A stretch of DNA of 64,000 nucleotides from NCBI GenBank assembly GCA_032718475.1, contig JAUCBJ010001318.1, positions 1 through 64,000 of the forward strand, given 5' to 3'. Numbering within the stretch: position 1 is the stretch's first letter; every line of letters begins with the position of its first letter. The notes beneath the pieces were generated by a model. That model searched no databases. It saw only the letters and a program-made list of their open reading frames with translations, and was not told where the DNA came from. The translations under genes were made by a program, and so were the position numbers. Below are positions 2,731 through 42,232 of the stretch, in pieces. This stretch comes from Nemertoderma westbladi. Lineage: Eukaryota; Animalia; Xenacoelomorpha.

Positions 2731-2870
2731 CTCTCTTACAGTTTGCCGTGCCACCTATTGCTATAATGGCACGGTAAAGTGTAATAGGACTGAGGAGCTC
2801 TCTTACAGTGCCGTGCCACGTATATATTAAATATAATTCAAAAAAATATAATTGTTATAATTATATAATA

Positions 2871-3778
2871 CACCATGACCCGTTATATAGTGTCATTTTC
2901 TGATGACACGGACCCCCCCCCCCCCCCCAAATTTTTCTACAAATCTTTATCATATTGTTTGAAATTTGAAACACAACTAGTTCAACTCACCGTGGTTGTT
3001 ACCATGAAGCCGGAATTTTCGATTTCGCCTTTAAATTTTATTTATAAGCGTTTTAAAAAAGTGTCTTTTGCGAAATCGCACCCTCTGTATCATTGCCATT
3101 CTTCACTTTAGTCGTAATTTTTTCACATCAATAGAAAGCTTGCGTTGCAAGGATTCCAAATATGTAACAATGTCTGAATTTCGTTGAGAAACAGCTGAGA
3201 AATAGGCATTCAAAGATTGCAAGAATTATTGTTCACTGCAGGCCATTTATTCTATTTAATAAATACACAATATTCTGGAACAATTTGTTTATGTATGATT
3301 AGCTACGCAATATAGATATTGTATAGGCATACCGCTGTTGCCTACCAACTCATAAAATAAATAACACGTTCTAGAATTTTGTGTATTTATTAAATAGAAT
3401 AAATGGCCTGCAGCGAACAATAATTCTTGCAATCTTTGAACGCCTATTTCTCAGCTGTTTCTCAACGAAATTCAGATATTGCTACATATTTGGAATCCTT
3501 TCAACGCAAGCTTTCTATTGATGTGAAAAAATTACGACTAAAGTGAAGAATGGCAATGATACAGAGGGTGCGATTTCGCAAAAGACACTTTTTTAAAACG
3601 CTTATAAATAAAATTTAAAGGCGAAATCGAAAATTCCGGCTTCATGGTAACAACCACGGTGAGTTGAACTAGTTGTGTTTCAAATTTCAAACAATATGAT
3701 AAAGATTTGTAGAAAAATTTGGGGGGGGGGGGGGGGTCCGTGTCATCAGAAAATGACACTATATTACGGGTCATGGTG
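2871..3778. mobile_element. Foldback/MITE-type non-autonomous DNA transposon (CACCATG termini, TA flanks)
   Basis: About 400-bp arms are near-perfect reverse complements (the mirror ORFs 2875-3111 and 3538-3774 are near-identical). Termini CACCATGACCCG...CGGGTCATGGTG, flanked by TA on both sides. Confidence 0.9.
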
Positions 3779-4314
3779 TATATATTTACGCAAGTGATAC
3801 CGTAATTTACTCTACGTACAATTAGATTTTGTTACGTCTTATGTAGCTAATGTTTTTATTGTTTGTTACTAAACCGGGTACACTTCCTTCACTTCCTTCT
3901 AGTTTCCCTAATTATGATATGATAGATTAAAAATTATCATTTTATTATATCAAAAAATTGCAAAATGTGAAGCTAGCTAGTTTTTGGTTCTTGTTTTTTA
4001 AATGTTCTAGAACATTATCAATCCATTTCATATAAAAATGTTGTTCTAGAACAGATACTTTTTGTTCTAGAACAAAAAATACAAAGCACTAGCTAATTTG
4101 TTAATTTTTTATTGTATGTTATCTTTGAATAAATTTTTTATACTAGCTATTTTTTGTTTCTTTTTTTAATGTTCTAGAACATATTATCTATACATTTAAT
4201 ATACAAATTTTGTTCTAGAACAAATATTTTTTGTTCTAGAACAAATATTTTAAGATCCTTTTATTATATCAAAATATGGCTATAATGGCACGGTATAGTG
4301 TAAGAGTCCCCGGT

Positions 4315-9204: not shown

Positions 9205-11444
9205 AACCCTCTTATAAGAATTTACAAATATAATTTAACCCTCTTATAAGAATTTACAAATATAATTTAACCCTCTTATAAGAATTTACAAATATAATTT
9301 AACCCTCTTATAAGAATTTACAAATATAATTTAACTCTCTTATAAGAATTTACAAATATATTTTAACTCGCTTATAAGAATTTACAAATATAATTTAACC
9401 CTCTTATAAGAATTTACAAATATAATTTAACCCTCTTATAAGAATTTACAAATATAATTTAACCCTCTTATAAGAATTTACAAATATAATTTAACCCTCT
9501 TATAAGAATTTACAAATATAATTTAACCCTCTTATAAGAATTTACAAATATAATTTAACCCTCTTATAAGAATTTACAAATATAATTTAACCCTCTTATA
9601 AGAATTTACAAATATAATTTAACTCTCTTATAAGAATTTACAAATATATTTTAACTCGCTTATAAGAATTTACAAATATAATTTAACCCTCTTATAAGAA
9701 TTTACAATTATAATTTAACCCTCTTATAAGAATTTACAAATATAATTTAACCCTCTTATAAGAATTTACAAATATAATTTAACTCTCTTATAAGAATTTA
9801 CAAATATATTTTAACTCGCTTATAAGAATTTACAAATATAATTTAACCCTCTTATAAGAATTTACAAATATAATTTAACCCTCTTATAAGAATTTACAAA
9901 TATAATTTAACCCTCTTATAAGAATTTACAAATATAATTTAACCCTCTTATAAGAATTTACAAATATAATTTAACCCTCTTATAAGAATTTACAAATATA
10001 ATTTAACCCTCTTATAAGAATTTACAAATATAATTTAACCCTCTTATAAGAATTTACAAATATAATTTAACCCTCTTATAAGAATTTACAAATATAATTT
10101 AACCCTCTTATAAGAATTTACAAATATAATTTAACCCTCTTATAAGAATTTACAAATATAATTTAACTCTCTTATAAGAATTTACAAATATATTTTAACT
10201 CGCTTATAAGAATTTACAAATATAATTTAACCCTCTTATAAGAATTTACAAATATAATTTAACCCTCTTATAAGAATTTACAAATATAATTTAACCCTCT
10301 TATAAGAATTTACAAATATAATTTAACCCTCTTATAAGAATTTACAAATATAATTTAACCCTCTTATAAGAATTTACAAATATAATTTAACCCTCTTATA
10401 AGAATTTACAAATATAATTTAACCCTCTTATAAGAATTTACAAATATAATTTAACTCTCTTATAAGAATTTACAAATATATTTTAACTCGCTTATAAGAA
10501 TTTACAAATATAATTTAACCCTCTTATAAGAATTTACAAATATAATTTAACCCTCTTATAAGAATTTACAAATATAATTTAACCCTCTTATAAGAATTTA
10601 CAAATATAATTTAACCCTCTTATAAGAATTTACAAATATAATTTAACCCTCTTATAAGAATTTACAAATATAATTTAACCCTCTTATAAGAATTTACAAA
10701 TATAATTTAACCCTCTTATAAGAATTTACAAATATAATTTAACTCTCTTATAAGAATTTACAAATATATTTTAACTCGCTTATAAGAATTTACAAATATA
10801 ATTTAACCCTCTTATAAGAATTTACAAATATAATTTAACCCTCTTATAAGAATTTACAAATATAATTTAACCCTCTTATAAGAATTTACAAATATAATTT
10901 AACCCTCTTATAAGAATTTACAAATATAATTTAACCCTCTTATAAGAATTTACAAATATAATTTAACCCTCTTATAAGAATTTACAAATATAATTTAACC
11001 CTCTTATAAGAATTTACAAATATAATTTAACTCTCTTATAAGAATTTACAAATATATTTTAACTCGCTTATAAGAATTTACAAATATAATTTAACCCTCT
11101 TATAAGAATTTACAAATATAATTTAACCCTCTTATAAGAATTTACAAATATAATTTAACCCTCTTATAAGAATTTACAAATATAATTTAACCCTCTTATA
11201 AGAATTTACAAATATAATTTAACCCTCTTATAAGAATTTACAAATATAATTTAACCCTCTTATAAGAATTTACAAATATAATTTAACCCTCTTATAAGAA
11301 TTTACAAATATAATTTAACTCTCTTATAAGAATTTACAAATATATTTTAACTCGCTTATAAGAATTTACAAATATAATTTAACCCTCTTATAAGAATTTA
11401 CAAATATAATTTAACCCTCTTATAAGAATTTACAAATATAATTT
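9205..11444. repeat. 32-bp AT-rich tandem array (~70 copies) with a 9-mer higher-order period
   Basis: Unit AACCCTCTTATAAGAATTTACAAATATAATTT; a variant unit pair recurs mostly every 288 bp. Confidence 0.97.
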
Positions 11445-13999: not shown

Positions 14000-14572
14000 C
14001 ACCATGAACCGTAACATAGTGTCATTTTCTGATGACACGGACCCCCCCCCCAAATTTTTCTACAAATCTTTATCCTATTGCTTGAAATTTGAAACACAAC
14101 TAGTTCCACTCACCGTCGATGACCCCATGAAGCCGAAATTTTCGATTTTGCCTCAAAATCTTTTTATAGGCGTTTTAAAAAGTGACTTTAGCGAAATCGC
14201 CCCCTCCGTATCGTGCCCAATCTTCACATTTATTCGTATTTTTTCATATCGTATAAAGCTTGCGTTGCAAGGATACCAAATATGTAAAAATGTTTGAATT
14301 TCGTTGAGAAATAGCTGAGATATATGCGTTCATTATCGTTCGGTGAAGGCCATTTATTCCATTTAATAAATACTCAAAATTATACTGTAGAACTAGTTAT
14401 TTATTTTATGATTTGGTTGGAAACAACGGTATGCCTATATAATTTCTCTACCGCGTTACCATTCATATACATAAACAAAACGATACTTCTTGCAATCTTT
14501 GAACGCCTACTGTATTTCTCAGCTATTTGTCAACGAAATTCAAACATTGTTACATATTTGGAATCCTTTCAA
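14000..14572. mobile_element. Left part of a second CACCATG foldback element, interrupted by insertions
   Basis: TA-CACCATGAACCG start, colinear with 2871-3500; the right arm resumes at ~16975-17114 and the terminus is at 31030-31059. Confidence 0.8.
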
Positions 14573-14903: not shown

Positions 14904-16805
14904 CCCTTTGTAACTAGGACCCCCTTCGTTCTGGGATAAGGACGCCCTTGGTCCTGGATTAAGGACCCATATACTTGGCTGCAAGGGTATATGGCCTGGC
15001 CAGGCAGATTGTGATCTACCAATGGCTGGTCAGGAGTAGAGTGTTCTCATGTCCACTCTGAATGCACTTCACTGCGACCTGCACCGGGCAGCAGGGGTAC
15101 AGGGCATGACCCAGGGACCCAGCAGATGAGCTGCACAGCCAATGCTGGGTCATGTGCGCCAGAGTAGATATGGGTGATGGGCCCCATATCTGACTCCACT
15201 GCGACACCCACCCTGTGGAATGGCAAACCAGGGTGTGGTTTGCCCCGAGAGCTGACTCGGCAAAAAAGCCCCCCCCCCCCCCCCCCCCCAACCCCCACTA
15301 TGGATTACTGTTCGCGCTTTCAGACCTTTGGCAGTTTAACCCGCCAAATTAAGATGTCTTCTAGATATTAAATCGCTTTTTAGCCTATGACAAGTATTTG
15401 ATTCACTACACTAGTCGAAACCAATCCGTGCGCGACCATTCACCCGCTGGATATTCCCGGGAGATTGGGTTCGACGGTTTAATTTTGTTGCTATGTAAGC
15501 CTAATGTATTATTCGACTGACAGTATTATATAATCTCTGACAATATTATTTATCTTCGGGAATATTAACAGTTCCACGAAGCTCCCGTTCAACACAGAGA
15601 AAGAGCAGTGAGATAGGAAATTTTCAGTTCAGTACTCTGTGATAGGTCAAAATCAAGGCTAACTCAAATTCTATTGGGAGATACAAAACAAGGTTATGAC
15701 GCAACCTCCCTAGGCTTGTTGGCCGATTAAACAGAGCCCAGATGCCTGCGTACAGCAAATCAGCCAATAAGCTGGTAACTTGCACTATTTTTAGCTGTAG
15801 ATCACTTTGAGAGTATTCTTAGCGACTGGGGGGGAACTGGCCAACAAGGCAAACGAATCAGTTATCCCACAAAAGCTTTTACAATTACATTAGTAATGCG
15901 AAGGTCCGGCCACTAGAGGCCAGTGGAATTACCGGACACAATCGGCCTCACAGGCGTCAGTTATCTCCTGACCGGCTGCCTGTCTCACCCCCTACTTGAG
16001 AGAGAGCAGCCAACAATTATTTGAGTCCCTTTCCTGATGACCTTTCTGGCCCAAACCTTGGGTCACCAGGGATGCCAGATTGTGAGGGGGAGAGGGAGTA
16101 TGGAGTTGCAGGCTACTCTCATGTTCCACCCCGACCAACAAAGCCATTGGTGAATCTGAGGCAAGTCACTAGACTAGCCTCAGTAAACACCCTAACACTC
16201 GGGTCCCCAATGCGACAAGGTGAGAACATGCTGCTTCTAGTGTTGGTCTTTTTATTAACTCTAGAAAGACCAAAATGTTGACAGTTTACTTTGAAAGTTA
16301 TCAGCAAGTCTCTGATCGGATGAGCATAAGCTCAAAGGATGGTATGCTTGAGCATGTGGACGACTTCTGTTACCTGGGATGATGGATCCGGAAGTCAGGT
16401 GAGGACCTTCGCAGGATGGCACATTCACAAGAATGCTACGCCGGGTTCATTGTGTCAAGTACAATGCACACATCTACAACCAGACACTATATAACATTGG
16501 AGGTGTCTCATTGGTTCCCCCAAGCTTTACCCTAGAACAAAATCGCCTCCGCTCTGCAGGACATTGCTTTCGCCGTGAGGACCAGCCAGTGCATAATCAG
16601 GTACTTTGGCAACCTCATGGAGTGAATAAGCATGTTGGACAGACATGACTTTCTTGAGACGCATCTTAAAGGACACTGGCCTTGAAGATGCGGATGATCT
16701 AGCAAATGTCATGGGTGATAGGGAGTTGTGGCGGCGCAATTTTGTCAACAAGCCGGCACAGCATTCTTAAAATGCCGATCCTAGTAGTAGTAGTAGTAGT
16801 AGTAG
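14904..16805 (+). mobile_element. Internally deleted RTE-clade LINE with retained 5' UTR
   Basis: 10-bp TSD TTATAACTCT (14894-14903 / 16806-16815) and (TAG)n tail. The APE-start-like motif RLASVNTLTL (~16171-16200) is joined directly to late-RT sequence near-identical to 41331-42047. Confidence 0.85.
15309..15883 (-). mobile_element. Solo LTR related to the BEL/Pao element LTRs
   Basis: On the minus strand it reads TGTAAAAGCTTTT...GCGCGAACA, with TSD ATTAC (15304-15308 / 15884-15888). Homologous to ~18590-18708 and 19297-19563 but lacks the ~590-bp middle. Confidence 0.9.
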
Positions 16806-16974: not shown

Positions 16975-17114
16975 CAAATTACGACTAATGTGAAGAATTG
17001 CGTCCATAGGAGGGCAATTTCGCAAAAGACACTTTTTTAAAACACTTATAACAAAAATATACAGGCAAAATCGAAAAATCCGGCTTCTTGGGGTCAACGA
17101 CGGTGAGTTAAACT
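16975..17114. mobile_element. Right-arm segment of the CACCATG foldback element
   Basis: Aligns with 3528-3671 (aattacgactaa..tgaagaat...cggtgagtt.aacta). Confidence 0.75.
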
Positions 17115-17130
17115 ACAGTAGTAGCGTTAG

Positions 17131-18225: not shown

Positions 18226-18338
18226 ACACGTTCGCGGGGCCTTCGCGCAGCACGAAGTGAGCAAAGCCTTTAGCATATGGGCACCATTAACGAGTTGTCT
18301 GCCATTAGTCAGAAGTCTTCAACACAATACTCGTCCTC
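18226..18338. mobile_element. Left part of an inverted-repeat element that was the LTR insertion target
   Basis: cacgaagtgagcaaagcctttagcatatgggcaccatt is mirrored at 30792-30850; related motif at 388-430. Confidence 0.65.
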
Positions 18339-19563
18339 TGTAAAAGCTTTTGCGTAATTAGCCGGTTATTATCCCCGTAAAGTACTCTGTGGTTGGTTTA
18401 CCAGGCATAAAAAGGCCGTGTCCTTGCTGTACTGGTGTTTTGGAGGACATAAAAGCCATTTCTTCTGTATTTGTACTTTAGAGGACATAATCTGCAATTT
18501 CGTGACGTAAAAGCTCGATACTCTTGAAAACAGTGTCGCTACCATGACGACGGCTAACGGCTGATATTGCCACGTTGCCCCATAGCCCTGCCTTCTGTAT
18601 CTGCCAATAGGATTTGAGTTGGTTTTGATTTTGACCTATCACATATCTACTGAACTGAATTTCCTATCTGTATGCTCATTCTCTGTGGTGGGTGAGATCT
18701 TTGTAGAATAAGGGTAGCTGGTATTCTTATAGTTATTCTTATCAGTTTTTAGTGTTGTTGGTGATTCTAAGCCAGGAAGAACGGCTTTAGCCCTACACTA
18801 GTAGGCTTAATTATAAGGACATATATCCGTTATCTGCATTTATCACAACATACCATACCATACCTAATCAAACAACCTGTGCATACTTTATATTGTTATA
18901 CTGCTATTTACTGTCAGTTCTTCATAATATAGTTGATGAATTATTATATTTGGAATAACGATAAATAACCCCGAAACCCAATATTCTTGATATACCGAAG
19001 GTAAGAGAGAAGGGTTACATATAACAATTGTGACTTATGTTAAAGTGGTTTGAAGTGAATCTAATGTTATTTGATAGACCCTACATGATTCGGTCCGTGT
19101 TCCTTTTATATGTGACTAAAATCAGTGAAGATCGGCAGATTAGTGTGCAGTATTGTGCAGCATTGTGTATGAGTGAGACTGATAACGAAGCATTTCCTAA
19201 AGAATGCGCCATATATGTGAATTATAACTAAGCCATATCGTTGTGAGTAGTTTAAGTCATAACTCTGTTTATATAGATAGAGCGCCACGTCCTAAAGGAA
19301 CTGTTAATATTTCCCGAAGGTGAATAATATTGTCAGAGATTATATAACACTGTCAGTCGAATAATACATTAAGCTTACATAGCAATAAGATTAAGCCGTC
19401 GAACCCAATCTCCCGGGTATATCCAGCGGGTGAATGATCGCGCACAGATTGGTTTCGACTAGTGTAGTGAATTAAATACTTGTCATAGACTAAAAGTGAT
19501 TTATTATCTAGAAGACATTCTAAGTTGGCGGGTTAAACTGCCAAAGGTCTAAAAGCGCGAACA
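18339..19563 (+). repeat. 5' LTR
   Basis: TGTAAAAGC...GCGCGAACA; only three substitutions seen by eye against the 3' LTR (18636, 18644, 18931). Confidence 0.97.
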
Positions 19564-19575
19564 ATAACGGATATA
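19564..19575 (+). promoter_or_regulatory. Candidate self-priming primer-binding site ATAACGGATATA
   Basis: Directly abuts the LTR end, has no TGG, and is the exact reverse complement of TATATCCGTTAT at 18822-18833 (29891-29902 in the 3' LTR). Confidence 0.65.
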
Positions 19576-19934
19576 GCTTCTTTATTGCAGTAAGCAATAA
19601 AGTTGAAAGTACCGGTTGACCGGTAAACCTGAACCGGTACTTCTGTAGGTAAGTAGGCCCAACTGCCAGAACCGGTACTGCTGTAGGTCCGTAGATCCAA
19701 CTGCCAGAACCGGTACTTCTGTAGGTCCGTAGGCCCAACTGTCCTAACCGGTACTTCCAGTATAAGTACATTAGTATTATTCGAATTTGATAGTTATATA
19801 CCGGTAGGTCTTAGTACTTAATCAGGGAACGGCCGCCCTGGTTTTTTATTGAGATTTTACTTGTTTCTGTCGGTTTTATTTGTTTGTAGGCCAGTATTGA
19901 ACAGAAGGCGTGTAAGCCTGATCAGATTGTACAG

Positions 19935-20510
19935 ACAATTTGTAGGCTGAGCTGTTGTCTGATTGCTGTTAGGTCTGAACGGATTGCAGTATGTGTAGAT
20001 CACCTGTCCGATAAAGAACGGTTAGGAAGTAGGGGCAGCAAATACTGTAAGGTAAACCCCCAACTAAAGAATAAGTCGTACTACTGGGTTAGAACGCATA
20101 CTACCTAATCATTTCGGAGTCTGCATGTCCTGTAGTTTATTTAGGCTTGAGAGTAGTCTGCCATCGTTTAGTCTGTACTTTGTTTGTGTAAGTCTGTACG
20201 GGTAGCGTATAATATTTATTTAGATAATTTGTAGGCTGGATAGTTGTCTGGCTGTTATTAGGTCTGAACGGATTGCAGTGTGTGTAGATCACCTGTCCGA
20301 TAAAGAACGGTTAGGAAGTAGGGGCAGCAAATACTGTAAGGTAAACCCCCAACTAAAGAATAAGTCGTACTACTGGGTTAGAACGCATACTACCTAATCA
20401 TTTCGGAGTCTGCAAGTCCTGTAGTTTATTTAGGCTTGATAGTAGTCTGTCAGTATTTGGTCTGCATTTTGTTTGAGTGGTTTGTACGCGTAGCGTAATA
20501 TTTATTATTC
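19935..20510 (+). repeat. ~289-bp tandem duplication in the element's 5' leader
   Basis: taggtctgaacggattgcag...tcggagtctgca occurs at ~19970 and ~20259. Confidence 0.9.
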
Positions 20511-21834
20511 AGAGTTTATGCGATTATTCGCAACATTCATTCCCCAAGTTTGTTCCTACAGTAATTGTGTTTGTTATACATACCGCTATAGTTAAATTAA
20601 CCCCGGTACTACACGGGCTGCTTGGTGTAGGTAAAGACTGGTGATTTTGTGCATCGGTCACTCCAGCAGATGCCGTGGTTCTTTTAGCTGTTCAAGTATA
20701 TTTAACTACTGATTATATGTTGTACAAGTACTCGTACCTAATTTAGGGTTTAGTGTACAGTGCTTTCCGAAAGTAATTAGTGTAGGCATTATATTTGTGT
20801 TGTAAACTGGTTGATAGGCACGTTCGATTAGCTCTATTAACTTCTAGGTAGGGACACTCCGTGATACATAACGTAGTACCTATAGCGATACGGCTATAGG
20901 TCGTCAGGCGGTGGTATTTTCCTATCTGGACAACGCAGTGTATCTACTACTACTTATTATTTTCAAATACCGTAGTACCCTGTCCGTTGTAATTACCAGA
21001 TTTCTAACCCTTTGTTAGGCTGGTTTGTAGACTTCTTGTAAAATTACCCTAAAAATTCGTATTTTGTGTTTTTTGTAAATTTTTGTGTTTATTTAGAGAT
21101 TGTAATCTCACCCGAATTGTACGTAATTTGTAGTATTAAGTAACTTAGGTAAATTAGTATTATTTGTTTTAGTGTCCTATAAGTAACACTTCACTGAAAG
21201 CGCACCGCTTTGTGTAGTGATTACTCCCCAGAAATAATAACATTTATTTCAAACATTGACAAAACCCATTAAAACGGGTATATATATATTATAAATCAAA
21301 TCTAACGATTTATAAATAGTAGGCCTACCATACAACCATTAGGTCTCAATATCAGTTGGACTACTGCTCGAATAACGGTAATAAAGTAAGTAAAGTAACA
21401 AAGTAACCCTAAAATTCAGAAATTCAATTATTTAAAATAATTGATATACTGGTATTTACGATAGGCCTATTATCTTTATTTCGATAAATTTCGGCTGAAA
21501 TTATACCGGTACTTGTAATTAATTCTAGTACAGAATTATACTTATATATGCTACAAACTGTAAGCTGTATACCGGTATTCCCGATAGGCCTATTATATAT
21601 TTATATATATTTGTGCTAAAATTATACCGGTATTCTGCGATAAACCTAGTCTGTAATAATACTTATATAGTTATATATACTATAAGCATACCGGTATTCT
21701 AATATATTATATATATATCACGCTACACTGAGTAGCAGTATCGGTAATTAATTACTAGGCTAACAGTTAATACAGAATTACTAGACTTGCTTAGACTGTA
21801 ATATAGCAGTAGGCATCCAACTGTACACATAAAC

Positions 21835-24800
21835 ATGTCTGACACAAGGCAAACTCTGTCAGATAGTCTCCTAGAAACAACAGTCTGTTTATCAGATAGG
21901 AGTATAGAGAATCCCAGACCGAGGTCTGAAACCCCTCCTACTGTAAGAAAGACAACCCCTACAGTAGCTGTGTCAGAACCTAGGTTAGTAGAAGCAATTT
22001 CGCAATTCGCGAAGTTAGTGAAGCGCCGTAGGTCTATCATCGGTACTCGGGCCCAAGTTAAGCGGGACCAAGAAGCAGCGGAACCGCAACAACCCGCGAC
22101 CCAAGGACTTACTTCTCAATGGCCCGATAGCTCCAGTAGTTCGGATACTGATGAGCGGACGCCCGAACGCGGAGCGAAGATGGCGGATAAGGTTTATGAT
22201 GAGCGGCCAACCTATGAAGAATCAACCGACGCCACTTCTTCTCAAGAAGAAAGCGAAGTGACAGCAGAGAAACCGCATAAGAGGGATGCTATTGACATCT
22301 ATCTGTCAGACTATCAACGCTTTGTAGGAGATGAAGAGTTGAGGAGAAGGCTGGAGGGACTTAGCCCTAATAGTGAAGGAACCAAGCTTGTGCTGGACGC
22401 AATCGATGCGGAAATGTTAGCGGCGAACCAGGCTAAATTTGATGAACTCCTCCGCATCACTAGAGTCCAAGAAGAGCAAGTAAAGAAAAAACTTATAGAA
22501 GACAGAAAGAAAGCAGCAGTGGCAGCGGCAGAGGCAGAAGCGGAAAGAAAAGCGGCAGAAGCGGAAAGGAAAGTGGCAGTGGCAGAAGCGGAAAGAAAAG
22601 CGGCAGAAGCGAAAAGAAAGGCAGCAGAGGCAGCGGCAGAGGCAAAGGCGGCAGCTGCAGCCGTAGAAGCGGAAAGGAAAGTGGCAGTGGCAGAAGCAGA
22701 AAGAAAAGCGGCTTTAGCAGCTGCAGTGGCAGAAGCAGAACGAAAGGCATCTGAAGAAACCACCCAACTAGAATTGGAATACATTCAGGAGAATCAAGAC
22801 TGCATAAATAAACAGTTAACAGCTAGTAATATGCAGATGATGAATCGATCTACTCCCAAAAGACAGGGATATACATCATCTGAGGAAGGCGATACCACCG
22901 ATACTGAAGGCAAAGGAAATAGATCTCGTCTAAGCAGACGTAAAAGAACATTCCACCGTCAGAAATTGCCTGATTTGCCTCCAGCTGTTAGAAGGCAACT
23001 AAATAACACCAACTTAGGTAGTACAGAGCCCACAGACCAAATAATTAAAATAGAAAGACTCCCTACTATAGTAGATGAGCCTGAAATAATTAGGCCTGTT
23101 CTTGAAATCACCCCTTCGGTGATAGACACACCTGTGCTCCCTGAAACTACCTCTAAATTCCCTCTGCATAGCACTAAGCTACCTGTGCCCCGTAGAACTG
23201 CCCAGGATACAGTTCAGGTCCTGGACCCCGAGCGAAATATTCCTGATTTGTCGCCCGTTGTCGCTCGTCCGCTCGCTACAACGTTGGCGACTCCCGCTTC
23301 GGCGGTCGAATGGGTGGACGAGAGACGGCGGGGGATGGATCTCCTGCTCGGGCAGATGCAGGAGACGGTTCAGCAATTCAAGGGCACAGTAAGGGAAAGT
23401 AGGCTTGAGTTGCAAGAAGTGCAGCAAAGTATCGCGCTAGAACGCGATAAATTAGTAAATACACAAAGGGGTATACCACCACCCCCTGTAACAATGTGTC
23501 AACCTGTTAGGTCTGAAGTATCTCATGCGCAAGGTGTGGAGCCTACACGCATCTATACTGCTAGCGAAATAGAAACTCCTATAGTGAACCCTATTAAGGG
23601 TAATTATAAACCTGTTGATAATGATATCTCATCTAGACTTGATAATAATCCGAGAAACTTATATACCGATAATTCTCTATTCAATAATGCGATGGCTCAA
23701 GAAAGTTTTACACGCCAAATGGCTAGAACCGAAGCCCGACAAGCGGTAAAGGTTGGAGAGATCGTCAAGTTCAATGGAGATGAGATGAAATGGTTACCTT
23801 TTAATGAATATTACAAAGATAACATACAGAACTCTGTACTATCTAACGGAGAGAAACTTAGATTCCTCATCGAATGTTTGGAAGGACCTCCCAAGTCAAT
23901 GGCGTTAAAATTTATTGGACATCCAGATGGATTAAGACAAGTTTGGGATACACTAAACATCAGGTATGGTAATAGGACTAACATAGCTAGGTATTTATAT
24001 GCGAAATTAATGGCGCCCCGAAAGTTTCTTAGCAGCGGGATTATAGAGTTTTCCGATGAGATTCAGGAGATCTGTAGACAACTAGATTGGTTAGGTAAGT
24101 CTCATGAATACCAGAATTCTATGGTTGTAGGAGCCTTAGCATCTACTTTGCCCGAGGGTGGAGTAGGTACACGCTGGGATAAGAAGGTGTTATATATGAT
24201 GGAACAACAACAACGAGACCCTACCATGACTGATCTCATGTCATTCTTAGATAGAGAAGTGAAATTACAGCTCCTAAGGCAGTCCAGAGAGAAGACATTG
24301 GAAAACAAGGTAAGTGAGAAACCCGTTTCTAGGAGAAGGGTAACACCAGTATGTTATACCGACGACGGTGAAAGCCAAACTTCTCAAGGAGAAGACAGCG
24401 GGAAAGACACTGACAGATCTTATTATGTCAATAAAATGCCTAAAGATCAGGTAAGTAAATCCGAGTCTCGACCCAATGACAGAAGGGAACCGGTACAAAA
24501 AACCCTTCCTACGTCTCCTAAAAGAATTCAGGTGAGAAAGCCCGAGGAAAGAACAAGTGTGCACCACATAGCACAGGTTAAAGTAAGTAACATCAAGCCG
24601 AAATGTGTGCTGTGCGACGGGCCCCACCGTTTAAATGCGTGTGATAAATTCCTGAGGAAATCACTAAAGGATAGACGTGAAGTCATGTGGGATAAGCGGT
24701 TGTGTTATAATTGCCTCAGACGAGGACACCAACGGCGAACCTGTTACTCCGACGCAAGGTGTGCAAAGTGCGGCGCAAAACATCATATCTTGTTGCACAC

Positions 24801-26259
24801 GGAATTCGAACGAAACAGCCCGAGTCAGGTAAGTGAGTCCGAACTACATGTCCAATTCAGTGATGTGAACGACACTGATCAATCTGAGATGGAAGGATTC
24901 TATACGGACGAGTTCTCCGACGAAAACGAATCCTGTTACTTAATAAACACCACCGCAGTGTATCGAGCACTCATGTATGAGAAAGACACAGACAGCGACC
25001 TCACCCTAACTACTTCAGATCAACAACCATCTTGGAAAGCGCCAACTTCCAATATAGGAATCCGAGAATTTCCTGTAGTCCAGTTACGGGTCCACGGACC
25101 TCAGAAGAGCTATATAGTGAACGCCCTCCTGGACTCCGGTAGCACAGGAACATTCATCGATAAAGAACTAGCCGAAGTCATCTTTGCTGGACAACCCAAG
25201 TTCCGAACCAAGCTAAACATGTCAGGGATCATGCAGGTTTGGAATTCTACTGTAGCTGCCGACTATTATATAGGTGAGTTGTCCACTCCACAGGATAAAC
25301 TTGGAGAATACAGTATAAGGTTAGTAAAAATGGTGGCAATAAAGAACTTCGCTACCACCCAAGTGGAACCTTATAATTGGGACGAAGATGATCATGCCCA
25401 ACAACTTAACATCCCTAGATTCGACACCGATTATCCTGGAGTACAAATATTAATCGGTCAAAACGCGCATGAGGCGCTGGAGACATTAGAGAAACGACCT
25501 ACTCAACCGCAACCACTTCAGACCTATGCGGTAAGAACTAGAGTAGGTTGGTACCTTACTGGACCTTCCCGAAGAACGCTCAGAGAAAGACTGCTTCAAG
25601 ATCGCGTCCGCCAGGTGAGCGAATGGGAAGATGATACTAGTGAGGGAGACGACCCAACTGAGGGAACACCACACTCCTCAGATAATGACAATCTTAGCTC
25701 CAATGTAGATCAATGGAGATATTGCCCCAAGAAGTTTAATCCAACTGACATCGCTTCCAGAGGAGCAACTCCTCAAGAACTGACAGATACTACAGACCGG
25801 TTAGGTGAACCCAACTTCCTGAGTAAGGAGGATGAATGGCCTCCCCATCTTACTCCGACTGAGATTAGACCAGCCAAGGGAGCGGAGAAAGTTAAACCTA
25901 AAACCCGGACGGGTGGAGCGGAGTTATTTGAACCCGGGATAGATCTGTCGGTATTACATATTGCCAGGGACGACGCCGTGGATCTGGACCTCCCCACCGC
26001 GAGTGGATCCTTCATGAAGATCAGAGAGAGCGATTGGAGCTCTGGAACATCAGACGTCTCGCAGGGACTCTCACCTCTCCTGCAGGGAGCGACGGACCAC
26101 TATAGCTCCTGGAATCGGCTTTGTAAGGCCGTCGTGTACTTAGAGCGATGTTTCTATCGTCACTATTCCAGGACGAAGAGGAAACCTGGAATTGTATTCG
26201 GGATGCAGCGACTCAATCACCCAGTCGGTCGTTTGTGTTTACCGGAAGGGAATGGATGA
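21835..26259 (+). CDS. BEL/Pao Gag-protease polyprotein lacking RT, most of RNase H, and integrase (1474 aa)
   Basis: AEAERK coiled-coil repeats; KFNGDEMKW...LSNGEKLRFL (DUF1759-like Gag core); three Cys/His knuckles (CVLCDGPHRLNAC, CYNCLRRGHQRRTC, CAKCGAKHH); protease ALLDSGSTGTFI; remnants QWRYCPKKFNPTDIASRG, YSSWNRL and HPVGRLC. No YVDD/RT or integrase core motifs. Confidence 0.93.
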   Translation: MSDTRQTLSDSLLETTVCLSDRSIENPRPRSETPPTVRKTTPTVAVSEPRLVEAISQFAKLVKRRRSIIGTRAQVKRDQEAAEPQQPATQGLTSQWPDSSSSSDTDERTPERGAKMADKVYDERPTYEESTDATSSQEESEVTAEKPHKRDAIDIYLSDYQRFVGDEELRRRLEGLSPNSEGTKLVLDAIDAEMLAANQAKFDELLRITRVQEEQVKKKLIEDRKKAAVAAAEAEAERKAAEAERKVAVAEAERKAAEAKRKAAEAAAEAKAAAAAVEAERKVAVAEAERKAALAAAVAEAERKASEETTQLELEYIQENQDCINKQLTASNMQMMNRSTPKRQGYTSSEEGDTTDTEGKGNRSRLSRRKRTFHRQKLPDLPPAVRRQLNNTNLGSTEPTDQIIKIERLPTIVDEPEIIRPVLEITPSVIDTPVLPETTSKFPLHSTKLPVPRRTAQDTVQVLDPERNIPDLSPVVARPLATTLATPASAVEWVDERRRGMDLLLGQMQETVQQFKGTVRESRLELQEVQQSIALERDKLVNTQRGIPPPPVTMCQPVRSEVSHAQGVEPTRIYTASEIETPIVNPIKGNYKPVDNDISSRLDNNPRNLYTDNSLFNNAMAQESFTRQMARTEARQAVKVGEIVKFNGDEMKWLPFNEYYKDNIQNSVLSNGEKLRFLIECLEGPPKSMALKFIGHPDGLRQVWDTLNIRYGNRTNIARYLYAKLMAPRKFLSSGIIEFSDEIQEICRQLDWLGKSHEYQNSMVVGALASTLPEGGVGTRWDKKVLYMMEQQQRDPTMTDLMSFLDREVKLQLLRQSREKTLENKVSEKPVSRRRVTPVCYTDDGESQTSQGEDSGKDTDRSYYVNKMPKDQVSKSESRPNDRREPVQKTLPTSPKRIQVRKPEERTSVHHIAQVKVSNIKPKCVLCDGPHRLNACDKFLRKSLKDRREVMWDKRLCYNCLRRGHQRRTCYSDARCAKCGAKHHILLHTEFERNSPSQVSESELHVQFSDVNDTDQSEMEGFYTDEFSDENESCYLINTTAVYRALMYEKDTDSDLTLTTSDQQPSWKAPTSNIGIREFPVVQLRVHGPQKSYIVNALLDSGSTGTFIDKELAEVIFAGQPKFRTKLNMSGIMQVWNSTVAADYYIGELSTPQDKLGEYSIRLVKMVAIKNFATTQVEPYNWDEDDHAQQLNIPRFDTDYPGVQILIGQNAHEALETLEKRPTQPQPLQTYAVRTRVGWYLTGPSRRTLRERLLQDRVRQVSEWEDDTSEGDDPTEGTPHSSDNDNLSSNVDQWRYCPKKFNPTDIASRGATPQELTDTTDRLGEPNFLSKEDEWPPHLTPTEIRPAKGAEKVKPKTRTGGAELFEPGIDLSVLHIARDDAVDLDLPTASGSFMKIRESDWSSGTSDVSQGLSPLLQGATDHYSSWNRLCKAVVYLERCFYRHYSRTKRKPGIVFGMQRLNHPVGRLCLPEGNG

Positions 26260-26869
26260 CTCTCCGGAAACTGTGGAAGGCAAGATTCTCTTCCCACGAC
26301 CACCTCCCTAATCCTTCAAACATCTAGGGACTCCATAACGTAACAACATATGGAGTGGGTGTGTGACTCTATTATTTTATATTATTTTATTATTTTTATA
26401 TTTCTGTATGTATTACTATGTAATTTTATTATAATCGTTTTCTTTAATTTTATTCAGTAGAATGTTATTTTAGCGATTATTTAGTAGATTAGTGTAATAT
26501 ATATTCGCGTTTATTACTTAATTACGTATATATTATATTTAATGCGACGGCAAGAAATAATTCTTTTTCTCTTTCCTTACTGTCCGTATCATATTATAAA
26601 TACGTGACTACAGTAAGATGAAATGTCCGTACTTATTAAAGTACAATAAAGCCACTACTATATTTAAGTATTATTGGTAGGCAGAGTATTAGGAATGCAA
26701 AGTTCAGATCCTCGTGTCTCGGCTAAACCAAGCTCTGGGTAGACCTTGGAAACGACTTGCCTCTTCACACTGACATTGCTTCGTGCGATATTGCTCTCAT
26801 ACCGTATATAATAATACATATAGTAGCGTGATGTCCCTCTAACAGTAGCGTAAAACGCACATAAATCTG

Positions 26870-27180
26870 TTAAACCTTTTGACCATCTGTAATTCTAGTC
26901 GATTAAGATATCGCGGCACCCACCGATATACTTGAAAGACAAATTATAGAATCAGTGGTTAACGTCCCCAGACAAGTTCTGGAATAAATCGGTGCCCATC
27001 TCAAATATTAATTATTTAATATTTGCAAATCTAATAAATCAAAATCTGTAAAATTCAGATCCTTCAACAATTCTAGTCAATTAAGATATCGTAGCATTTA
27101 CCGATATTCTTAAAAAGACAATTGTCATAGAATTAAGGATCTTGTGTCCCCAGACATATTCTAGAATCAAAATATGTCCA
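26870..27180 (+). repeat. Diverged ~178-bp tandem duplication in the element's 3' region
   Basis: aattctagtc.attaagatatcg...tccccagaca at 26891 and 27069. Confidence 0.75.
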
Positions 27181-27809
27181 TTTAATTATTAAATAATAAA
27201 ATTTCAGGGAATAATTTAAATTCATGCCTTTTAAGGAATTTAATAAATTGCCATTTTTACGCAATTTATAACATTCCCAAAATTCCATTAATTAATAGAT
27301 CACGGGAGCGGAGATTTATCTTATCATGCGTATGAGTGTGCGAAAGTCTCCCAAACATAGTCAATAGCCGATAAAATTCATAAAGTCATGTATAAAACAG
27401 AGCATTGATCATTAAAGAATTACTATTAAATAACATCCCAGATCTGTATGCATTGGAATTACCCTAATTCTACCGCTAGCTTTGCATAATGTCACCATAG
27501 CAACAACCACGCTAGAATTAGAATTGAGTTAAAAGAACAATAGAAAGCTTGTCCCATTGAATAGCATAGGGAATAAATAGCGCACTGCTAGTATCCAAGG
27601 ATACATAATAATACAGTGACATTCTGGAAGGCATTGACTAACGGACAAGTGACCCGAGTGTGTGTAATTTGTGACAAGTTGTGTGTGTGGTATTTGTGAG
27701 TTTATAGGCGAATGTTACTACTAAGGTGTGTTTACAGTAGCGAGTCGCAATTGTGAAAGTAACCCTAACTCTCCAGTAAGAACCTGAGGTGTATCTAAGC
27801 CTTTGGGAT

Positions 27810-27915
27810 GGACAGTCGAGTGACTTGTGCCGGTTGTCGTTGTCGTTGTGCGGCTACGTCGTTGGCGAAAGTACAGCGGCGACGACACATCGGCGCTGAG
27901 GATCTCGTACTGTCC
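27810..27915 (+). other. Long RNA stem-loop inside the retrotransposon 3' region
   Basis: 27829-27851 pairs with 27871-27894 (23 bp, one bulge, five G.U); outer stem GGACAGT/ACTGTCC and CGAG/CTCG. Confidence 0.65.
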
Positions 27916-29407
27916 GGGGGTTGATTGGGGTAGGCAGCGACGCCCGCTCGCCTAAATATAAACTCATTATAATATGGATAAACTCATATATAGCAGATAT
28001 GACGGAGTTGATAGAAGATGGTCTTAGTATCGGGGAGCGATATACTCTACTTTTACAAGCGTTTGTTGATAGCTTAATACGCGGCGACGTTAGTCCAACT
28101 GCTGCGGAGGACGATGGTCGTTATATCGAACCGCCAATGTCCCAAGAGCAGCTCGCGCGAGTTGGACTATAGAAAATTCGCTGCTCGATATACGCAGCGT
28201 AATGGTACGTATATGGTCTTCTTAACTACTGGTCATCCTATCGATTTACATAATACGGACTATGTCGACTATATATCCTGCCCAGCGGAGTCGGAACCAT
28301 AAACTGAAATTCGAATGCGAAAATTCTATTCGAAATCGACTCGAAAGAAAAGATACTAAAGAAACAAATAAACGCGGTAACTCCAACGTATATTTGGAAT
28401 TCTTGATAGAAGCATTGTAACAACAAATAAATATCACCCGCGTTTCCCCTACCAGACGTGCGTCTTTGGTATTATTACGATAAATGCCCTAGACCCAACT
28501 AATAAACGGAAAGACATAAACATCCACGGAAACGTTGTGTTAAACACAGTTGTGCTCGTTATATTTACTGGAGTTTCGAGCGAAACTTGTTTGACGTATC
28601 ACCTATGCTCACTCGGCTCGAACGATCCTGGAGTAAACCTACGATCAGAGTCCCGGAATACTCGGTCAAACCTCCTCATTCCTTAGTTGGACCTCAGACC
28701 TGCGATCCTGGCGGTGTCGCGGATCCTCGCGGACTGTATTCACTGTTCAAAGATCTAGTGCTACCCTAACAATTAATCGGTAACACTCCGACAGTGATTT
28801 CTAGCTAGCCGCCCATCTTACCTAGCCGGATTGTGACGCGGACACCTAATATCACTATCCAACCGTATGGTCGTTCCCGTTTAACGCGATACAACCCTTC
28901 ATCAAGGTGAAGGAGAGCGTTGTACGAAACGAGTTAAACGCTATTCTATAAAGATCAAAAAAGAAACCTGCGTTTGTTCAGATAAACGTAAGTTATAACA
29001 GTAAGTCCAATCGATAAACGAATTGGCCTTATCTCAGTTCGATTGGGAAATCTCGAATCTCTAAGAAGATATCAAGCTTAGAAAACCCTATTCTCTGCGA
29101 GAGTTTTGGATGAACGTATCCAGCTACGAGCGGAGGAAAATCAGCTCGAGGAGAAGCATATCGAAACGGCGGATACCCCGACCATAATCCTACACCTTCT
29201 GATGCAATCATATTGCACCCTTCACCCAGGATTTATAGCCCTCCTAGTAAAGTGGCTCGCCCCAAAGAGAAAAGGACTCTTGCTAGCCTCAAAAAACTGC
29301 GTAAACGCCGTCTGCGTAAGAAAGACTAACTGTTTAGAGTATCTTTATATTTTAGAAACTGTGATTTGTTATATTTTATAGACTTAAATCCCATTTTCTG
29401 GGAGCGG

Positions 29408-30632
29408 TGTAAAAGCTTTTGCGTAATTAGCCGGTTATTATCCCCGTAAAGTACTCTGTGGTTGGTTTACCAGGCATAAAAAGGCCGTGTCCTTGCTGTA
29501 CTGGTGTTTTGGAGGACATAAAAGCCATTTCTTCTGTATTTGTACTTTAGAGGACATAATCTGCAATTTCGTGACGTAAAAGCTCGATACTCTTGAAAAC
29601 AGTGTCGCTACCATGACGACGGCTAACGGCTGATATTGCCACGTTGCCCCATAGCCCTGCCTTCTGTATCTGCCAATAGGATTTGAGTTGGTTTTGATTT
29701 TGACTTATCACAGATCTACTGAACTGAATTTCCTATCTGTATGCTCATTCTCTGTGGTGGGTGAGATCTTTGTAGAATAAGGGTAGCTGGTATTCTTATA
29801 GTTATTCTTATCAGTTTTTAGTGTTGTTGGTGATTCTAAGCCAGGAAGAACGGCTTTAGCCCTACACTAGTAGGCTTAATTATAAGGACATATATCCGTT
29901 ATCTGCATTTATCACAACATACCATACCATACCTAATCAAACAACCTGTGCATACTTTATATTGTTATACTGCTATTTACTGTCAGTTCTTCATAATATG
30001 GTTGATGAATTATTATATTTGGAATAACGATAAATAACCCCGAAACCCAATATTCTTGATATACCGAAGGTAAGAGAGAAGGGTTACATATAACAATTGT
30101 GACTTATGTTAAAGTGGTTTGAAGTGAATCTAATGTTATTTGATAGACCCTACATGATTCGGTCCGTGTTCCTTTTATATGTGACTAAAATCAGTGAAGA
30201 TCGGCAGATTAGTGTGCAGTATTGTGCAGCATTGTGTATGAGTGAGACTGATAACGAAGCATTTCCTAAAGAATGCGCCATATATGTGAATTATAACTAA
30301 GCCATATCGTTGTGAGTAGTTTAAGTCATAACTCTGTTTATATAGATAGAGCGCCACGTCCTAAAGGAACTGTTAATATTTCCCGAAGGTGAATAATATT
30401 GTCAGAGATTATATAACACTGTCAGTCGAATAATACATTAAGCTTACATAGCAATAAGATTAAGCCGTCGAACCCAATCTCCCGGGTATATCCAGCGGGT
30501 GAATGATCGCGCACAGATTGGTTTCGACTAGTGTAGTGAATTAAATACTTGTCATAGACTAAAAGTGATTTATTATCTAGAAGACATTCTAAGTTGGCGG
30601 GTTAAACTGCCAAAGGTCTAAAAGCGCGAACA
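29408..30632 (+). repeat. 3' LTR
   Basis: Direct repeat of 18339-19563, followed by TSD TCCTC. Confidence 0.97.
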
Positions 30633-30850
30633 TCCTCCTCTTGTGCCTCGTTGCGTTCGTTCGTTTTTGATCAAACTTCAGATTCTTTCTAAACTTTCGA
30701 CGGACTACATACGTACCAAGTTTTGTTAAATTTCATCGAGGAATAACCGAGTTATTAGCGTTCAAAAATTTACGACGACAGACGATGACGACAGACCACT
30801 CGCCAATGGCACCCATATGCTAAGGCTTCGCTCACTTCGTGGCTCGCCCC
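30633..30850. mobile_element. Right part of the inverted-repeat element split by the LTR retrotransposon
   Basis: 30792-30850 is the reverse complement of ~18250-18301. Confidence 0.65.
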
Positions 30851-31218: not shown

Positions 31219-31812
31219 CACCATGTAATGGAATATAGTGTCTTTATTCAGGTACCTGCTTGGAAATAGCTGAAAAAGAGATATGGGCATTCGAAAGATG
31301 CATGTATTTGCTTCCCCCGCACGCCATTTATACTGTTTAATAAATACATCATATTCTAGAACATTTTATTTATCCCGTATGTAGCTGGGCAACAATGCAA
31401 TGCTTCTTTAATCATACTATTATGTAGCTATTCATAGGTGCAAAACATCGCGTACTGTAGCTGCAAAACCACACAACTTTTGAATCTCAGCTATTTCCCA
31501 ACCAAATTCAAATGTTTTTACACTTATGGAATCCTTGCACGGTCAGCTTTCTATTGGTACCAACAAATCACGATAAGTTTCGAATAACTGCAGTATAACT
31601 GGTGAAATATCACCTCTGAGACACCTTTTTCAAATGCTTGTATCTAAACATCGAAAGCAAAAATAAAACTTCTGGCTCACCCACGGAGGAGGAGGGAGGT
31701 GAAACTATCTCTGTTTCAAATTTCATACAATCTCATTAAGATTTGTAGAAAAATTTGGGGGTTGGTACCGTTCAGATACCTGAATAACGACACTATATTC
31801 CAGGACATGGTG
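31219..31812. mobile_element. Non-autonomous TIR element, second CACCATG-ended family
   Basis: CACCATGT..TGGAATATAGTGTC.TTATTCAGGTA at 31219 is mirrored at 31773-31812; the interior resembles the 2871 family. Confidence 0.75.
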
Positions 31813-33390: not shown

Positions 33391-34652
33391 CTAACACCAT
33401 TCTTCTTCCCCCCCAGAGTCCATATAGTAACCAGGTACTTTGCCAGTTTGTGCACCTGGGAGGGTCGACCTGGCGTGGCGTGTATTACTTAGCGTTGACG
33501 GATCGTGGGTTACAATGTCTAATCGCGCCGCTTGATGGCGCACGGGCGACTCCGCGATCCGGAGTAAACCCACCAACTCGAGGTTAACCCCGGACGACGA
33601 TGCTGGAGTGTAGGGCAGTCGACGGCGGTTAGGGCCGCCGCCCCTGGGGCACATAATGGCGCTGCGGTAAGCGGAAGGGCTGAGTGGCGGGGAGAAGTGG
33701 CTGAGGAGGGAAGCGCCACCGTGGTGGCTGTGGAAGGAGGCGTCGCTGGATATGGAGCGACCTTGACTGTCTAGAGACCGCCGCTGGCCTTCCAACGATC
33801 GACGGACGGTCAGTTGGTTGTTCTGCACTTCATTAGTTTGTCCCGTCGGTATGTGAGATGAGTTCCGTTTACACGCAGATTTCTCATCCGACGGATCGAA
33901 TTCCGAAGCTGTTGGAGAAACATCGATCCGTTCCTGACGTATTGGTTTTAATCCTTTCTTACTGAGCTGTCTAGACAGTCCACCACCAGTTTCGTCCATT
34001 GACGTCCCTATTACTGGTTTTTGTGGTAGTTCCCTGTGCACCATCACATTGGGTGGAAGTTCTATTCGCACCGGTGCACCTGGCGGTAGTTCCCTATGCA
34101 CCGGTGCACCAGACAGCAGCTCTCTATGCACCGGTGCACCAGACGGTAGTTCTCTATGTATCGGTGCACCGGTATGCAGTTCCCTATGCACCGGTGCACC
34201 GGTAGGCAGCAATGGGGGTCGCATTACGGGACGGCTCGGAAGAGTCCGCGCTGGAGCGCCTCCCTCCGGCCGGTACCGGTACACCGTCCGAGTGGCCGGA
34301 GGGAGCGGGGGTTTACCCGAGTCGGATTGGCTCTCGATACTAGATCCCCGACTGTGGGAGACCATCCGCCGGATCCCGCCGGGCTCCGAGTTGGACGCAG
34401 TCATCCCGTCGCAACTCGCGAGGTTCGCGTACATCCGGTGTCGCAGGAGACCTCGTGGCGATTCCCACGCCGGACGTGGGGCGACGCCCGGATGCGGTTG
34501 GGTGCGGTCGGTTTCGTCAGAGAATCCGCGCTGCAGACGATCCAGAGTCCGATGGGACGAGGAACGGTCAACCGTGCCGGTGTTCAGGTACCAGTCGCTG
34601 GAGGTTCGCCTGGGGATCGGGTGGTTGAGGGCGGGATGGTACGGGAAGTAAC
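33391..34652 (-). CDS. Terminal coding exon of a Cav2-type calcium channel alpha-1 subunit
   Basis: Acceptor cgcag at 34653-34657, phase 1; encodes RRRLPYTP (cf. Cav2 RQLPQTP SH3 ligand) and ends DSGGEEEWC-stop (Cav2 PDZ ligand D/E-x-W-C). Confidence 0.92.
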
Positions 34653-34969
34653 CTGCGTTGTAATACAAAACATAAATAATATTTTGTTATAATTGTGACC
34701 AGACAGGATACGGGGGGGGGGGGGGGGGGGCAGACGCAAATCCCATCTTGGCGAATTAATATCCCGCCCCAATGGGTTATGCTAATTTCTCCATTTGGGG
34801 AAAGGAGCAGGTTACAGTGGCGCGTTATTTTAACTAAAACAATAAACTAGACACAACAGAACAGAACAGAACAGAACATGTTACAGTTACAGTTTTTATT
34901 TTTGGGAGTGATCAGCTGTTATTTGCGTCGAATTTCCCCTGGAGAGGGATGAATTTTTATTGCGTCGAA

Positions 34970-39933: not shown

Positions 39934-40871
39934 ATGATTCTATATAAGATTAGGCCTTACATAGAGAAACTACTGCGTAAGAGCCAAAACGGATTTCGAC
40001 CAAATAGACCAACAATAGCTCAGATACTTGCACTACGGAGACTGATTGAAGGAATTAAATTAAATAATCTCCCCGCAGTCATGACTTTTGTGGACTTCAA
40101 AAAGGCATTCGACTCCATCTATAGAGGTAAATTGCTTGAAATCCTAAGAGCTTATGGAATACCAGAAGTAATTGTTGCTGGCATTTGATTGTTATATTGT
40201 GACACAGAAGCGCAGGTACTCTCACCAGACGGTGAAACTGAGTTTTTCTCAATCCTGGCTGGCGTACTGCAAGGTGACACATTAGCACCATTACTATTTG
40301 TAATTGTGCTGGATTACGCAATGAGGACGGCCACAAAGGGTGAAGATCTGGGATTCACACTTCAAGAACGCAGAAGTAGTAGATATCCGGCAACTACAGT
40401 CACAGACACCGACTTTGCGGATGACATCGCCCTGCTCTCTAATACGCTAGCAGATGCACAGCTTCTACTAAATAAAGTGGAGAGGGCTGCTAAGGAGGTT
40501 GGATTGCATATAAATGCTACCAAGACGGAATTCATGACTTTTAATGTTGATAGAAACTTGACAACCATTGATAATAATCAACTAAGGAAAGTCGACGACT
40601 TCCAGTACCTAGGATCATGGATAGAGAGTAGCAAAAAGGACATAGAAGTTAGGAAAGCAAAGGCTTGGGTAGCTCTATCAAAAATGGATACCATCTGGAA
40701 ATCAGATCTCTCCAGGCACCCGAAGACTAAGTTCTTTCGAGCCACGGTGGAAAGTGTATTTTTATACGGGGGTGAGGCCTGGACACTGACTAAGAAGGAT
40801 CTCGGGAAGCCTAAAAGGATCTCATTTCCACTGTCCGAGTTCGCTCGACCTAGTAGTAGTAGTAGTAGTAG
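39934..40871 (+). mobile_element. 5'-truncated, inactivated RTE LINE (RT fragment)
   Basis: QNGFR, FVDFKKAFDSI, GVLQGDTLAP, FADDIAL and FQYLGS motifs; in-frame TGA at 40186-40188; (TAG)n tail. Confidence 0.93.
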
Positions 40872-41147
40872 TGGTATTTATATACCTTAATAATGCAATA
40901 TTGTCCTCGCTCGCTACGTTCGCTACTAAGGGTCGCTGAGGCAACAGTTATACATTTTGGGGTCGGTGTAAAATCCAAGAGCTATTTAGTGTTTCCCTTC
41001 TAATTATAGTTTAAGTCATAAATCAAGACCCACCAGAAGAACTTCCATAAAACATGTTATATACTAAAGAATTGGACGTACAGTATCTTTGTCTATTACC
41101 GATGTGTATTGTGTACGTATTTTTATGTATTTATGTTTTTATTGTAC

Positions 41148-42120: not shown

Positions 42121-42232
42121 GTGGAAGGGTTAACTGTGGAAGATCACTCATGGTGGTGAACAGGCATTCCTTGGCTTAACGAGCCTAAAAGATTCTCCCA
42201 TTCTTTTTATGTATTGTAAATTATTCACGTAC

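Follow-up and report, generated by a model that had tools for sequence, protein, structure and literature searches.

What primes reverse transcription in an LTR retrotransposon whose 5' LTR is not followed by a site for a tRNA? This question is raised by an element of Nemertoderma westbladi, found in the 64,000-nt stretch of DNA that was analysed here (contig JAUCBJ010001318.1, assembly GCA_032718475.1; hereafter the window). According to ICTV, the Belpaoviridae are primed by host tRNAs, with an 18-nt site complementary to the 3' end of tRNA-Arg or tRNA-Gly (PMC8742986). The accessible parts of PMC6317226 and PMC4600332 describe self-priming for the Tf1/sushi group and give Tcn1 and the copia TAR lineage as predicted cases. 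In Tf1, as given in an excerpt of PMC7175516, the primer site pairs with the transcript's first 11 bases, and RNase H cuts between bases 11 and 12.

A preliminary description of the sequence had suggested that the element primes itself. We keep self-priming as the most likely reading, which has gained support from a common block around the proposed primer and from related families, 9 of the 41 having self-complementary primer sites. Specifically, we give a probability of about 0.7 to a non-autonomous BEL/Pao element with Tf1-like self-priming and a reverse transcriptase supplied in trans. The transcript would start at about A18821, and its first bases (18822-18833) would pair with 19564-19575 in the particle. 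By analogy with Tf1, RNase H would then cut near 18833 and free the 3' end of the primer. The reverse transcriptase and RNase H would be borrowed in trans from an autonomous relative, and minus-strand DNA synthesis would be primed by the element's own RNA.

The element and its coding content

One complete LTR element was observed in the window, at 18339-30632, and its parts are listed in Table 1. The 5' and 3' LTRs differ by three substitutions over 1225 bp. The long open frame contains a DUF1759 gag domain (PF03564, E=3.3e-13), three zinc knuckles and a protease motif. Among 17 homologues, 15 carry PF05380 and the other two PF03564 or PF18701, and the profile of the relatives described below matched the element's protein at 4.6e-73 and 8.2e-16. 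On the sequence of its gag and protease and the domains of its homologues, the element is assigned to BEL/Pao, in agreement with the preliminary description.

Table 1. Features of the element and of a related solo LTR, with positions in the window
Feature	Position	Strand	Remarks
Target-site duplication, left	18334-18338	+	TCCTC, 5 bp
5' LTR	18339-19563	+	1225 bp, TG...CA
Block common to family copies with differing flanks	18786-18840	+	55 bp; from summed contig depth and joints
Candidate self-primer	18822-18833	+	12 nt; predicted position, the RNA 5' end or close to it
Candidate splice donor inside the LTR	19001-19006	+	AAG/GTAAGA; from a motif scan only, no acceptor assigned
LTR stretch able to pair with 19576-19595	19373-19396	+	-18.8 kcal/mol; 21 of 500 shuffles as good, marginal
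Primer-binding position	19564-19575	+	exact complement of 18822-18833, offset 0, without TGG
Hairpin	19580-19602	+	9 bp, 3' of the primer site; 3' arm holds AATAAA (19596-19601)
Leader repeats	19631-20506	+	38-bp unit x3.3 (19631-19757); 289-bp unit x2 (19933-20506)
Open frame, gag-protease	21802-26259	+	1485 codons, first ATG at 21835
Polypurine tract	29400-29407	+	abuts the 3' LTR
3' LTR	29408-30632	+	1225 bp; second copy of the 12-mer at 29891-29902
Target-site duplication, right	30633-30637		TCCTC, 5 bp
Solo LTR, related subfamily	15309-15883	-	575 bp, intact ends, 5-bp target duplication

A tblastn search with five full-length relatives matched gag, protease and one short downstream motif and found no reverse transcriptase, RNase H or integrase. 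This short motif, located directly after the protease in the element, lies about 560 residues further on in the full-length relatives, and no YxDD-like motif was observed. The preliminary description had made no mention of the missing reverse transcriptase. Since reverse transcriptase and integrase are missing and the LTRs differ at only three sites, the element is, to judge from its sequence, a young non-autonomous BEL/Pao derivative. Its near-identical LTRs and open frame suggest that it moved while already without reverse transcriptase and integrase. Protein searches, one of which used P0003 as the query, identified no close or autonomous partner, the best matches having 24-44% identity over parts of the protein. 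No relative was found in protein scans of viral contigs, and a pattern for the LTR end had no matches in the viral, metagenome and prokaryote collections.

The 3' part of the element (27900-29381, + strand) contains several short frames of 64-101 codons, one of which ends in a strongly basic run. The four short frames that were tested had no Pfam match; they possibly represent an accessory or spliced gene.

Elsewhere in the window, two reverse-transcriptase fragments with DUF6451 face each other (40189-40890, + strand; 41331-42143, - strand), and an inverted copy of part of the second is located at 16223-16772. Long tandem arrays are located at 9205-11444 (unit of 32 bases), 45642-53776 (47 bases), 55179-60459 (20 bases) and 61260-63661 (34 bases). 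A MITE-like inverted repeat of 425 nt, with arms at 2868-3292 and 3357-3781 that are 97% complementary and 64 nt apart, has related pieces near 14040-14570, 17010-17115 and 31480-31770. A 431-codon frame at 33391-34686 (- strand) had no Pfam match and overlaps a 30/60-base repeat.

Complementarity between the LTR and the primer-binding position

The 12 nt that follow the 5' LTR end (19563) are the exact reverse complement of 18822-18833 and stand flush with the LTR, just as they had been described, with no gap. The motif begins 483 bases from the start of the LTR (39%, earlier given as about 40%) and was found, as claimed, in both LTRs. When up to one mismatch was allowed, the 12-mer and its complement occurred at only three sites in the window, namely the two LTR copies and the primer-binding position. 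The reported absence of a canonical tRNA site also holds, the first TGG after the LTR being located at 19839, after 275 bases without one. A tRNA 3' end would therefore be unable to bind at the LTR end. According to the preliminary description, the primer site of Tf1 starts with the same five letters as that of the element.

The chance of such a match had been put below 1e-4, and this estimate has to be raised. Composition-aware models gave 2.4e-4 to 5.1e-4, and 6 of 16940 control positions (3.5e-4) had an equal match when offsets of 0-5 were allowed. Complementarity of all 12 nt by chance is thus unlikely. Over many thousands of scanned LTR elements, however, a few chance matches of 12 nt are expected, which counts against our reading. 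In plants, elements were called self-primers if a stretch of 10 nt or more, beginning 0-5 nt past the LTR, was complementary to the LTR, as stated in an excerpt of PMC6317226; at 10 nt, 467 of the 16940 control positions would pass too. A longer spliced primer in the element's LTR was considered and rejected, the best spliced complement being 9 nt compared to 12 nt unsplit.

The best energy of the 12-bp duplex was -13.7 kcal/mol, a value reached by none of 25 shuffles. In the predicted fold of 18822-19640, the duplex was present in both the minimum-energy and the centroid structures (z=-4.0, 20 shuffles), and its predicted probability was about 1.0 for RNAs starting at 18810-18822. The 9-bp hairpin that had been noticed at about 19580-19602 is formed by 19580-19588 and 19594-19602, with pair probabilities of 0.86-1.0.

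In the structure of Tf1, the primer site is flanked by two additional duplexes, giving a three-duplex 'pretzel' (described in the accessible part of bioRxiv 10.1101/2022.12.06.519325). In the element, pairing of 19373-19396 with 19576-19595 is an alternative to the local hairpin and would be one arm of such a structure. Both flanking duplexes can be drawn in the right order (19373-19396 with 19576-19595, and 19435-19443 with 19555-19563), and they were equalled by 21 and 36 of 500 shuffles, respectively. Among 10 relatives, the pattern was absent as a general feature. With the primer site held unpaired in the fragment 19369-19610, the pairing with the LTR stretch beat the hairpin, at 0.98 vs 0.02. 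Two pairings are open to the leader. One is with itself, in the hairpin that hides AATAAA at 19596; the other is with the LTR stretch 19373-19396, within which a poly(A)-signal-like hexamer is located at 19384-19389. According to this folding model, the latter pairing, which is possible only at the 5' LTR, could mask the hexamer.

Complementary sites in BEL/Pao relatives

To collect relatives, 20 BEL/Pao proteins were aligned, and a scan of metagenome contigs with this alignment gave 76 loci. In ten of them the LTR end was fixed by the divergence of two copies. Four of these ten (two families) have a TGG tRNA-type site, five (four families) have a site of which 10-15 nt are complementary to a predicted GT-AG joint of their own LTR, and one has neither. 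Self-complementarity was thus observed in five of the six fixed-end relatives without a tRNA-type site. Of the 76 loci, the wider scan for joint complements covered 58, those with 300 bases or more upstream of the match, and left out the other 18. It identified 12 of the 58 loci (L003, L005, L006, L014, L021, L033, L034, L039, L043, L045, L063 and L064), belonging to 9 of 41 families, while cross-family pairs gave 18 of 3258. L014 and L021 have one site in common, so that 8 lineages are represented, and L040 (10 nt, weaker donor) is counted among the five fixed-end relatives and not among the 12.

The complements of the relatives start 2-4 nt past the LTR end, and in most cases an intron of 76-404 nt splits them. 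The letters of the joint complement are particular to each lineage, and among distant families with split complements the primer site and the LTR complement differ as a pair. It is these distant relatives, not the element's own family, that provide the strongest evidence for the mechanism. In L003 and L006, TATATA is located at -31, and the predicted first exon is only about 5-8 nt. A CA dinucleotide, a sequence that can serve as a transcription initiator, was observed within -4 to +2 of the 5' end of the complement in 10 of 11 cases, the element included. None of 200000 simulations reproduced this pattern at a background of 0.16-0.35 per interval, the interval itself having been picked after the data were seen. 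The pattern fits start sites and would put +1 of the element at A18821.

Only one unsplit candidate was found among the relatives, L020, whose LTR end is not independently fixed. Unsplit matches in L003, L004, L025, L034, L036, L039, L046, L058 and L076 were not counted, as none lies at an LTR end that is fixed, and those in L076 are part of a separate inverted repeat. A trait that many relatives seem to build by splicing would, in the element, come ready-made and unsplit.

In the protein tree, the self-complementary loci are located in one clade and the tRNA-type loci outside it, with a FastTree support of 1.0 for the full alignment and an SH-aLRT of 94 for 540 columns. The element's protein is 20-28% identical to those of the relatives over the 540 columns, the highest value (28%) being to members of the self-complementary clade. 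It sits on a long branch without firm placement, and a position inside the clade was not rejected (AU p=0.174, 27 rows). The preliminary description had proposed an independent origin of self-priming in this family; with the trait distributed over a wider clade, the tree neither supports this nor speaks against it. One family inside this clade consists of L052, L050 and L049; L052, which has a fixed LTR end, has no tRNA-type site and no complement of at least 8 nt. Three loci, L023, L028 and L069, were assembled as head-to-tail arrays of their respective element.

Start site, alternative readings and significance

The element's stretch is present as contigs in 6 of 7 sequencing runs of the host, four of which were compared (16015 contigs from run X1). 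None of the six is recorded as RNA, and X4 is possibly RNA. In X1 the summed depth, which is not taken as copy number, was 30-42k at 18685-18794, 312-334k at 18785-18840, 38k at 18841-18868 and high again from 18897. The same shape was observed in run X3, with 149-168k in the block and 10k just downstream. Joints were found at 18786, 18834 and 18836, the copies being common in the block and different on either side, and the family is very abundant and diverse in the host. The block contains a dyad at 18789-18807 (a predicted fold), TATAA at 18812, CA at 18820-18821 and the 12-mer. A pattern for the block had no matches in prokaryote genomes. The shared block around the 12-mer supports self-priming, yet a core promoter would be common too. 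Among 40 of 72 and 40 of 250 variant rows, which were not chosen by frequency, there was no variant in either 12-mer and no paired change between the two within the family.

The solo LTR on the other strand does not contain the part matching about 18709-19296 (about 590 bases), and hence it has neither the shared block nor the 12-mer, and it keeps the region equivalent to 19341. The joint of its deletion has a 4-nt GGAA microhomology, and the deletion may have arisen by faulty strand transfer or after insertion. An LTR with intact ends but no 12-mer counts against self-priming until other copies are seen, although this one copy may be a dead end. In run X5, a contig with a depth of 558 continues like the upstream part of the solo LTR.

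The preliminary description had cautioned that no TATA box stands at -25 to -30, and the caution is justified, since the -30 region is not A/T-rich and a TATA-like motif, TATAA at 18812, is at -10 from the predicted start. The position of this motif bears on the closest alternative, which we consider unlikely. In it the pairing is real but is made by the copy in the 3' LTR (29891-29902), with a promoter further down and the 12-mer in U3; the copy would act as an end-to-end contact or as a primer cut from a second RNA. A TATA box at 18812 would set the start at about 18838-18845, which counts against our reading. The shared block has its end in the same region (near 18840), as could be the case for a core promoter. 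A second motif, TATATAA at 19341, would give a start at about 19372, after which the hexamer at 19384-19389 would leave a short R, and it is the 19341 region, not the 12-mer, that the solo LTR retains. TATA-like words, however, occur six times in this A/T-rich LTR, and a pairing that stops exactly at the LTR boundary has the geometry needed for priming. The complements of the relatives begin next to CA and, in L003 and L006, 31 nt after a TATA box. The strong candidate donor at 19001 also suggests that this part of the LTR is transcribed.

Somewhat less probable is that the match is due to chance or is a relic, and that priming is performed by an RNA of the host, for example a piece of a tRNA, or by the hairpin at 19580-19602, in the manner proposed for the conserved hairpin site of fungal GalEa elements. 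The chance of 3.5e-4 and the self-complementarity of 5 of the 6 fixed-end relatives without a tRNA-type site both speak against this, as does an Rfam search of 18339-21800, which gave no matches. Such primers do have precedents in the accessible parts of PMC6317226 and PMC5445492, where half-tRNA primers are known in copia elements and a 9-bp inverted repeat replaces the primer site in GalEa elements, respectively. The lack of covariation within the family among the sampled variant rows and the solo LTR without the motif would fit as well.

The least probable reading is internal self-priming, in which an RNA starting near 18786 with a short hairpin gives a longer 5' fragment that pairs through its last 12 bases; the joint and loose ends at 18786, the hairpin 18786-18812 (-6.7 kcal/mol) and 7 further possible pairs (18813-18819 with 19579-19585) are in its favor, but the predicted duplex probability drops to 0.26-0.38 for starts at 18786-18800, and no TATA-like word is located 30 nt above 18786.

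Tf1-like self-priming from the transcript's own 5' end, the reading we prefer, can be compared with known systems. Tf1 and Tf2 of Schizosaccharomyces pombe, Tj1, Tosmo1-3 and the rest of the Tf1/sushi group resemble the element in having no tRNA site and a post-LTR sequence complementary to the inside of the LTR. These are Ty3/gypsy chromoviruses, whereas the element's protein, with its DUF1759 gag and three zinc knuckles, is BEL/Pao, so the element is not a member of the group. It also differs from Tf1 in having no reverse transcriptase of its own and no TATA at -30, its start is predicted from sequence, and its 'pretzel' duplexes are marginal. Most likely, the element works like Tf1 without belonging to the Tf1 group. 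With the Belpaoviridae it has in common the LTRs (1.2 kb in the element), gag and protease, the polypurine tract and the 5-bp target duplication, but not the 18-nt site for a tRNA 3' end, the reverse transcriptase or the integrase. The plant elements TAR, Houba and Osr-1, which are Ty1/copia, and Tcn1, which is Ty3/gypsy, were judged by the same complementarity test, which the element passes with 12 nt, although they belong to other superfamilies and other hosts. There is also a likeness to the BEL/Pao relatives with joint complements, which also have no TGG, a complement in their own LTR and a CA adjoining its 5' end; the element's complement is unsplit with an offset of 0, whereas theirs are intron-split with offsets of 2-4 nt.

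No description of self-priming in BEL/Pao was found in the literature that was covered, which lay outside most subscription journals, the primary Tf1 papers and the Repbase reports. It is not described in the accessible portions of PMC3601003, PMC6934838, PMC5443660 and PMC8220671, and PMC3118150, a survey of BEL/Pao, and PMC554778, on Sinbad, contain neither PBS nor tRNA in their main text. So far, Tf1 is the only element for which self-priming is established; for its gypsy relatives and one copia lineage it is predicted.

For the superfamily as a whole, the balance tips slightly towards a wider conclusion, namely that a large part of BEL/Pao has dropped tRNA priming for the 5' end of its own transcript. 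The trait would exist in two forms, one built by splicing a cap-proximal intron and one ready-made and flush with the LTR, in a third superfamily and possibly with a second origin within BEL/Pao. Since the family is abundant in the host, the predicted 5' ends at about 18821 and a primer of 10-13 nt are directly testable. If the reading is true, self-priming would reach a third LTR superfamily and many animals, and it would explain elements that were annotated without a primer site and missed by tRNA-based LTR finders. Replication of these elements would then be tied to the choice of the transcription start site and, in the relatives, to splicing.
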